IMG/VR virus record: IMGVR_UViG_2600254997_000022
DNA: 20,766 nucleotides
DNA from: a virus
Taxonomy: Duplodnaviria; Heunggongvirae; Uroviricota; Caudoviricetes
Reading direction: 5' to 3' (one strand)
Part shown: in pieces, positions 721-1,008 of the stretch
How positions within the stretch are numbered: the first letter of the stretch is position 1
Layout of the letters: every line of letters begins with the position of its first letter
Translations under genes and position numbers: made by a program
The notes under the pieces: generated by a model
Seen by the model: only the letters and a program-made list of their open reading frames with translations
What the model was told of the DNA's origin: nothing
The model's database searches: none

Positions 721-1008
721 TTACTGTCTCTGGCAATCTTTATCGCGATAACGCCTGAAGTACCCTCTCGCTTCCTCATCCATACCAAGAGCCGAATGAG
801 TTCGCTTAACTGCCTGTCTTAAATCTCCGAATCTGTCTGTAGTTGCTGGTGGGCGTGCCGCCCTACGGATACATTCAGAGCGTCTGTTTGCTGCATGTTC
901 ACGTTCTTTATCGCCATCTGCCAGCATCATGACTTCTGCCCATCGTGCGGCAGCTCTCCGGTATAGCCCTTTTGACTCCAGCTCTTCAGCTTTCCTGTCC
1001 CTTATCAT
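721..1008 (-). CDS. PerC-family transcriptional activator homolog (95 aa)
   Basis: ATG preceded by GAGAGG. The segment ELESKGLYRRAAARWAEVM matches my recollection of the PerC/Pch family signature (LE..G.YRRAA..W). Small basic protein. Confidence 0.55.
   Translation of the reverse strand: MIRDRKAEELESKGLYRRAAARWAEVMMLADGDKEREHAANRRSECIRRAARPPATTDRFGDLRQAVKRTHSALGMDEEARGYFRRYRDKDCQRQ

Follow-up and report, generated by a model that had tools for sequence, protein, structure and literature searches.

A recombinant PerC/Pch-family gene on an EcCIMP1-type phage-inducible chromosomal island of Escherichia coli

Introduction

EcCIMP1 is a 19,963-bp phage-inducible chromosomal island (PICI) whose excision, circularisation and transfer take place only with the P22-like helper Kapi1 (PMC11773190). 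Among EcCIMP1-like elements, variation falls on the genes for integrase, AlpA and PerC (Pick et al., PMC11773190). The PerC-type protein of EcCIMP1, EcCIMP1_025, represses LEE1, silencing a LEE1-lux fusion dose-dependently in Citrobacter rodentium (Pick, Stadel and Raivio, ISME J 2025, PMC11773190). Family members can thus turn the LEE type III secretion island off, as EcCIMP1_025 does, or on, as do PerC and PchABC. The latter activate LEE1 by relief of H-NS/StpA/Hha silencing; activation by Pch requires the silencing complex, and Pch lowers H-NS occupancy (PMC4764244). PchE is reported to have no effect on LEE1 (PMC11773190), and its over-expression represses curli and adhesion and increases flagella (PMC7369912). 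No effect on LEE1 fusions is attributed to the PerC-like genes of the PICIs EcCIEDL933 and EcCICFT073 in the part of Porter (2005) that is cited in PMC11773190, and 'some but not all' of the PICI PerC alleles are said to activate LEE (PMC6092414).

The ANR proteins are under 10 kDa and 39–80 aa in length (PMC4038620), with a published three-helix secondary structure (PMC4983702). Their signature reads A, E, A, W ... W, R, C; residues A14, E18, A26 and W45 of Aar are needed for activity, which mutation of W45 abolishes (PMC4983702). Two ANRs of ETEC H10407 complement Aar (PMC4038620), and members of the family interact with H-NS, with Ler and with AraC-family proteins (PMC5570504, PMC10148876, PMC4983702).

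Here we describe a perC gene in a 20,766-nt stretch of viral DNA from IMG/VR, referred to as the window. Its identification is correct but ordinary, the gene being already annotated; the gene, its family name and its PICI location (PMC6092414) are public, as is the regulatory activity of its sister allele (PMC11773190). The present additions are incremental: a recombination point, a His-for-Trp exchange at an ANR-critical position, a quantified synteny of perC with primase and ori, and a second ori-type array upstream of the gene.

Results

Family membership of the perC reading frame

The perC/pch-family coding sequence occupies positions 721–1008 on the minus strand, stop codon included, and encodes from an ATG start a protein of 95 aa (11.2 kDa, pI 10.0). 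Residues 1–89 align with positions 1–89 of the 90 in the Pfam model PF06069 (PerC), with an E value of 8.1e-33. The score of 113 bits, against a gathering score of 22.6, is far above chance level; PchE, EPEC PerC and EcCIMP1_025 score 152.8, 143.4 and 104.5 bits, respectively. The protein also matches PHROG 994 (E 1.5e-36). A search of 5.8 billion proteins retrieved 81 relatives, all carrying PF06069 bar one C-terminal fragment, and the closest RefSeq proteins (98–99% identity) are named 'PerC family transcriptional regulator [Escherichia coli]'.

The residues that do not vary among 20 aligned family members are D4, A7, E11, G14, Y16, R17, R18, A19, A20, R22, W23 and C46, and every one of them is found in the window protein. 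It is also a small helical protein, as are the family members (about 90–105 aa), it retains their invariant motif near the N-terminus and their conserved Cys, and it is carried by a horizontally acquired element that is missing from empty-site genomes. The earlier note had proposed a PerC-family homologue at this place from a motif and had named a PerC profile search as the check; the full-length PF06069 match upholds both the proposal and the motif.

No competing reading frame longer than 34 aa was found in the other frames over perC, except for a 109-aa TTG ORF that overlaps the end of the gene by 16 nt and is unannotated in every related genome. We rejected a chance reading frame in view of the PF06069 match, the invariant residues and the conservation of the gene across 312 genomes (see below). 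The window ORF is a real, intact gene for a small regulator of the PerC/Pch family. A tblastn search of 50,697 phage records returned just two weak matches to the protein, and its clade is therefore essentially absent from deposited phage genomes.

The carrying element

The element that carries perC is an EcCIMP1-type PICI, an E. coli phage satellite, which bears out the location on a mobile element supposed in the earlier note. Positions 925–5918 of the window are 98.2% identical, and positions 7230–18244 are 98.8% identical, to EcCIMP1 of E. coli MP1 (about 16 kb). An integrase, an AlpA-type regulator, a primase and an ori with two iteron sets around an AT-rich region are present within about 20 kb. 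Capsid, tail and lysis genes are absent, and gene content and order match EcCIMP1. A plasmid is ruled out by the chromosomal location between dinD and yicC, and an intact prophage by the absence of capsid, tail and lysis genes.

The window corresponds almost exactly to one integrative element. Bases 1–26 are the 5′ end of dinD, and genomes with an empty site match positions 1–248 alone, from dinD into the 3′ end of yicC. The left junction lies in this 3′ end (244–255): chromosomal homology ends at 248 and is followed by the core GAATCTG (249–255). The boundary at about 248/249 follows from a three-way alignment of the left junction, the right junction and the empty site of Nissle 1917; when the att core was sought as an exact repeat, only a chance 12-mer came up. 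The core common to both junctions (window 244–255, L002:25760–25790) measures only about 7 bp. The insertion point thus corresponds to the last codons of yicC, which encodes the YicC/YloC endoribonuclease. The original 3′ end of yicC is left as a remnant on the dinD side, and the integrase side supplies a new one. At the attL end perC is the last gene of the satellite. The far end, next to yicC, is occupied by a tyrosine integrase gene (19513–20766, minus strand) that is not the EcCIMP1 integrase. The window element is a variant of the kind noted for EcCIMP1-like elements by Pick et al.

An AlpA-family gene, the alpA_1 of EcCIMP1, lies at 1658–1843 on the plus strand (Pfam Phage_AlpA, E 1.9e-13), divergent from orf67 and perC, and its product is 100% identical over 52 aa to that of EcCIMP1. 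In EcCIMP1, alpA_1 is dispensable for satellite excision and can replace the helper phage excisionase (PMC11773190). On the minus strand, matches at the Rfam gathering level were obtained for C4 antisense RNA (16178–16265, 81 bits) and isrK (16328–16407, 57 bits). Both fall in the region annotated 'ash family protein', beside a split in the ash reading frame. They suggest an immunity module of the P1/P7-like c4-icd-ant type on the satellite, and the ash annotation is possibly over-long in relatives.

An IS629 insertion (IS3 family; 5919–7229, plus strand), with an ALIL frameshift pseudoknot at 6254–6370, interrupts the lytic transglycosylase/DNA-transfer gene. This gene (3763–7804; 906 aa in relatives) is a pseudogene here; the flanks of IS629 overlap by 3 bp, and a further frameshift lies near 4514. 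The ash frame, too, is split in the window element. The element may be defective for transfer and, given this partial decay by IS629 insertion and frameshifts, may no longer be induced.

A mosaic perC allele

The 5′ 69 nt of perC (940–1008, minus strand; codons 1–23) are identical to EcCIMP1_025 in the nucleotide comparison. The first mismatch falls at gene nt 70 (window 939), and beyond it nucleotide identity is about 40%; the blastn block between the window and EcCIMP1 begins at window 925. At the protein level, identity to EcCIMP1_025 is 93% over residues 1–28 and 32% over the remainder (29–95), which gives about 50% over the whole length (BLASTP, aligning locally, gives 54%). The perC allele is a recombinant in which the promoter region and codons 1–23 are of the EcCIMP1 type and codons 24–95 derive from another perC allele. 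In IMG/VR, window-type and EcCIMP1_025-type alleles are both found behind identical iterons, -10 hexamer and Shine-Dalgarno sequence. The common upstream region of the two alleles places the exchange in the highly conserved N-terminal coding segment. One satellite backbone with one regulatory region can therefore carry perC alleles that differ in their C-terminal part, so that strains alike in having an 'EcCIMP1-like island' may differ in its effect on host expression.

A survey of 5,426 complete E. coli genomes found the allele-specific 3′ 215 nt of perC in 312, from many hosts. The identity is at least 99% in 192 of the 312, and this part of the gene is annotated as PerC family in every one of the 312. 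The gene of strain A30 differs from that of the window by one synonymous and one conservative change. The perC of E. coli 214-4 (L002:6837–7124) shows eight non-synonymous and no synonymous differences from the window gene. Its substitutions are mostly G-to-A and change the family-invariant residues G14 (G14R), Y16 (Y16C) and A21 (A21T); this suggests that the gene was inactivated, or that strain 214-4 went through an unusual bout of mutation.

Iteron arrays and synteny with the replication module

The motif GTTGGTTCA occurs in 11 exact copies in the window, confined to two clusters (1045–1165 and 10873–10974). With one mismatch allowed there are 16 matches against 4.9 expected, a number reached in none of 100 shuffles. 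The first cluster, array A (1045–1165), lies immediately upstream of perC and is built like an ori. Its six copies form two sets of three, one spaced at 9 bp and the other inverted and spaced at 21 bp, on either side of an AT-rich spacer. A gap of 37 bp separates the closest iteron from the perC start codon; the iteron module that the earlier note had placed beside the gene is thus confirmed. Array B (10873–10974) holds five exact copies in the same architecture and is located 26 bp 3′ of the primase stop codon, the canonical ori position of PICIs. The gene concerned encodes a TOPRIM/DUF927 primase-helicase (11000–13759, minus strand), 99.3% identical to the EcCIMP1 primase.

The two arrays are mutually inverted and about 9.7 kb apart, with P22-like DNA-transfer genes, alpA_1 and orf67 between them. 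The pair recalls the ori/crr pair of P4. Both arrays exist in EcCIMP1, with six copies each, and related loci have between two and four copies in the perC-proximal set.

Just upstream of array A, and co-oriented with perC, lies orf67, a conserved ORF of 67 aa (1229–1432, minus strand). It gave no Pfam or PHROG match. By tblastn it is found at 50–63% identity in 8 of 14 loci from other genera, with further matches in IMG/VR loci. Its homologues usually lie near an iteron array or alpA_1. They are unannotated in RefSeq relatives, where PGAP calls a 45-aa ORF on the opposite strand instead. We consider that orf67 is probably a real, unnamed satellite gene.

The position of perC relative to the replication genes was compared in 14 perC loci from other species, found by family alignment, and in 80 loci from IMG/VR. 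A co-oriented primase gene lies 0.2–2.5 kb upstream of perC in 10 of the 14 genome loci and upstream of perC in 69 of the 80 viral loci (within 3.6 kb in 61 and at 5–10 kb, which is the EcCIMP1 arrangement, in 8). Two layouts recur. In the first, the order is primase-ori-perC with the identical iteron, as in Enterobacter, Lonsdalea, Pantoea and Erwinia. In the second, primase-ori-x-ssb-perC, the perC gene begins a few bases after the ssb stop codon; pchE on Sp7/OI-51 of O157 Sakai is an example. An ori-type array directly upstream of perC is found in the window, in EcCIMP1, in 4 of the 14 genome loci and in 14 of the 80 viral loci. In these satellites, then, perC is regularly found at the end with the replication module. 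About 9.7 kb now separates the primase-proximal array from perC in EcCIMP1 and the window, where perC keeps an array copy of its own.

This tight synteny with primase-ori(-ssb) across many genera, together with the array directly upstream of the gene in several settings, raises the question of whether perC primarily serves the life cycle of the satellite, for example by countering H-NS silencing of satellite or helper DNA or by being coupled to initiator occupancy of the iterons, with host virulence effects as by-products. However, the presence of PerC varies among EcCIMP1-like elements (PMC11773190), and only 'some' E. coli PICIs carry PerC (PMC6092414), which argues against an essential role in the life cycle. 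We regard a primary satellite function as unlikely. A more elaborate scheme can be framed in which PerC genes, linked to the ori, would belong to the replication module of the satellite and would not be mere virulence cargo. Array A would then double as a second replication site, resembling the crr of P4, and as the operator of perC. The output of PerC would be tied to occupancy by the primase-initiator, the native job of the protein would be to free satellite or helper DNA from H-NS-type silencing on induction, and the 5′ 69 nt would be the point at which satellites exchange C-terminal 'specificity' tails. Taken as a whole, this scheme is speculative and decidedly improbable.

Signals flanking perC

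A Shine-Dalgarno sequence, GAGAGG (1014–1019, minus strand), is read 5 nt upstream of the perC ATG and is kept in all 15 related upstream regions compared. Between it and the last iteron lies a -10-like hexamer, TATAGT (1022–1027, minus strand), which reads TATAAT in 13 of 15 related loci. It is a candidate promoter element only and has no convincing -35 partner. A scan of window 1–2300 for consensus promoters and terminators called no site near perC and did not call the TATAGT hexamer. The 136 nt 3′ of the stop codon fold into no more than a 5-bp hairpin with UUUUCG behind it (z-score 0.5), which hardly amounts to a terminator. Transcription of perC may start at the -10-like hexamer or may result from read-through from orf67 or the primase operon.

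The gene faces outward over attL toward the SOS gene dinD, which is on the same strand and starts at window 26. The interval between the two comprises about 470 bp of non-coding element DNA (43.9% GC) with a weak hairpin at 635–647. Read-through from perC into dinD is conceivable.

The lack of a consensus promoter, the IS629 insertion and frameshift in the lytic transglycosylase gene, the split ash frame, and the eight non-synonymous against zero synonymous changes, invariant residues among them, in the 214-4 allele would all suit a silent passenger, unexpressed and without present function, on a decaying element. Against this, the ORF is intact, retains all invariant residues and is preceded by a good Shine-Dalgarno sequence. 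Moreover, it is conserved at 99% or more in 192 genomes, and the A30 allele differs by only one synonymous and one conservative change. That perC is a silent passenger is very unlikely.

Protein architecture and relation to the ANR family

The AF2 model of the perC protein is all-helical, with three confident helices in residues 5–51 (pLDDT about 90). These three N-terminal helices are ANR-like and TPR-like. A Pfam search found no HTH or other DNA-binding domain, a PDB sequence search with the PerC family profile returned nothing under E = 1, and Foldseek found no match to the model in the PDB with E ≤ 0.001.

The NCBIfam ANR model NF033650 aligns its positions 7–54 of 54 with residues 5–52 of the perC protein (E 9.1e-6). 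The score of 25.4 bits is below the curated cut-off of 32 bits. Other PerC proteins behave similarly, with 31.1 bits for EcCIMP1_025, 19.1 for EPEC PerC and 17.9 for PchE. Among eight PerC proteins, all of which match over the first ~50 residues and stay below the threshold, the window protein ranks second. In an ungapped alignment, the two ANRs of ETEC H10407 share A7, E11, A19, W23, L29 and C46 with the window protein, as well as R42; these positions match the published ANR signature (PMC4983702). As far as these alignments go, homology of the perC protein to the ANRs is likely; by its score the protein falls outside the ANR family. The protein is also larger than the ANRs (95 aa, 11.2 kDa) and extends ~45 aa further at its C-terminus. 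Furthermore, no gene for an AraC/XylS-family partner, an association typical of ANRs, is annotated in near-identical elements.

The second Trp of the ANR signature is replaced by His38 in the window protein. At this position, equivalent to Aar W45, EcCIMP1_025 has Trp38, PchE has Gln, PchA has Val and EPEC PerC has Leu. The presence of Trp38 in EcCIMP1_025 fits the suggestion of Pick et al. that this protein acts like an ANR repressor. For this single character, compared in five proteins, His38 would place the window allele on the PerC/Pch side, which we take as a lead.

These data bear on whether the window perC could be an anti-virulence repressor of the ANR type, like EcCIMP1_025, that binds AraC-family activators, H-NS or Ler. 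The second-highest ANR score of the eight PerC proteins speaks in its favour, as do a regulatory region and first 23 residues identical to those of EcCIMP1_025, itself a silencer of LEE1-lux (PMC11773190). However, the score is below the cut-off, the protein is larger than 10 kDa and has His for the second Trp, residues 29–95 are only 32% identical to EcCIMP1_025, and no AraC-family gene is annotated on the element. An ANR-type repressor is accordingly a minor possibility.

Identity of the window protein to the CHARACTERISED proteins is 54% for PchE, 50% for EcCIMP1_025, 48% for PchA, 44% for PerC of EPEC pEAF and 23% for the ETEC ANRs. Over the C-terminal residues 53–90 it is 42% to PchA and 22% to EPEC PerC. 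The C-terminal half of the window protein has a net charge of +3 and is basic like those of PchA, PerC and EcCIMP1_025; that of PchE has a net charge of -5. With five proteins compared, this too is a lead rather than evidence. The perC protein is not a close orthologue of any family member tested.

An activator of ler (LEE1) and other host virulence loci, of the PerC/PchABC type, must be considered on the same data. PerC and PchA belong to the same Pfam family, are 44% and 48% identical to the window protein, likewise have no second ANR Trp and likewise possess a basic C-terminal half; in addition, some of the PICI PerC alleles activate LEE (PMC6092414). On the other hand, C-terminal identity to both is low, EcCIMP1_025 represses LEE1 and, to the extent that Porter (2005) is reported in PMC11773190, the EcCIEDL933 and EcCICFT073 genes leave it unaffected. 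EcCIMP1-like elements are moreover equally common in commensals and pathogens (PMC11773190). This parity, and the occurrence of the allele in 312 of 5,426 genomes from many hosts, mean that LEE cannot be its usual target. We hold a PerC/PchABC-type activator to be distinctly unlikely.

Discussion

Our preferred explanation, which we consider probable as a whole, combines a PerC/Pch-family gene, an EcCIMP1-type satellite that carries it, a recombinant allele and a presumed adaptor mechanism. In its general form, the last of these, interference with silencing by a helical adaptor, has in our estimate an even chance of being right, and it is drawn by analogy with characterised relatives. The perC protein would be a small, basic, helical adaptor rather than a classical HTH binder, made of an N-terminal core of three ANR-like/TPR-like helices and a C-terminal tail that varies. 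It would alter transcription by disturbing H-NS-family silencing complexes, partner regulators, or both. Its targets would be AT-rich, horizontally acquired host loci and possibly satellite or helper DNA.

For Pch, ChIP revealed association with DNA and H-NS was not pulled down (PMC4764244), so that H-NS is only a candidate direct partner within the PerC/Pch family. Relatives that are 40–55% mutually identical range from activators of LEE1 through neutral proteins to repressors, and whether the window allele would raise or lower expression is therefore not predictable. A transfer of function from EcCIMP1_025 was rejected, as only 23 residues are common to both as an identical allele. The cross-talk with host regulation envisaged in the earlier note has published support for this sister allele on a near-identical element (PMC11773190). 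More generally, perC is a small regulator moved between E. coli strains by phage satellites.

Comparison with known systems

With the ANR family (Aar, Rnr, and ETEC p948_0450 and p948_1070) the window protein shares a gapless alignment over the N-terminal 50 residues and the three helices. It differs in its low identity (23%), its extension of ~45 aa, the missing second Trp and the missing AraC-family neighbour.

PerC of EPEC pEAF and PchA/B/C have in common with the window protein the Pfam family, the N-terminal motif KAxxLExKGxYRRAAxRW, and a similar size and basic character. Their genetic contexts are distinct: perC of EPEC belongs to the plasmid operon perABC and pchA/B/C lie on EHEC lambdoid prophages next to IS629, whereas the window gene resides on a primase-ori satellite.

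Among characterised members, PchE (ECs_1588; EHEC O157:H7 Sakai Sp7, OI-51, EcCIEDL933) shows the highest overall identity to the window protein (54%). Like it, PchE is satellite-borne, encoded downstream of primase-ori-ssb on the same strand, and devoid of the second ANR Trp. Unlike it, PchE has an acidic C-terminal half, and its gene follows ssb and not an iteron array.

EcCIMP1_025, on the PICI EcCIMP1 of E. coli MP1, has in common with the window gene the satellite backbone, the integrase-distal position, the iteron array, the Shine-Dalgarno sequence and the first 23 residues. The two proteins differ in residues 24–95, which belong to another allele in the window, and thereby in Trp38 versus His38. 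The two elements differ in the left-end flank, in the integrase and in the integration site, which is tRNA-Thr for EcCIMP1 and yicC for the window element.
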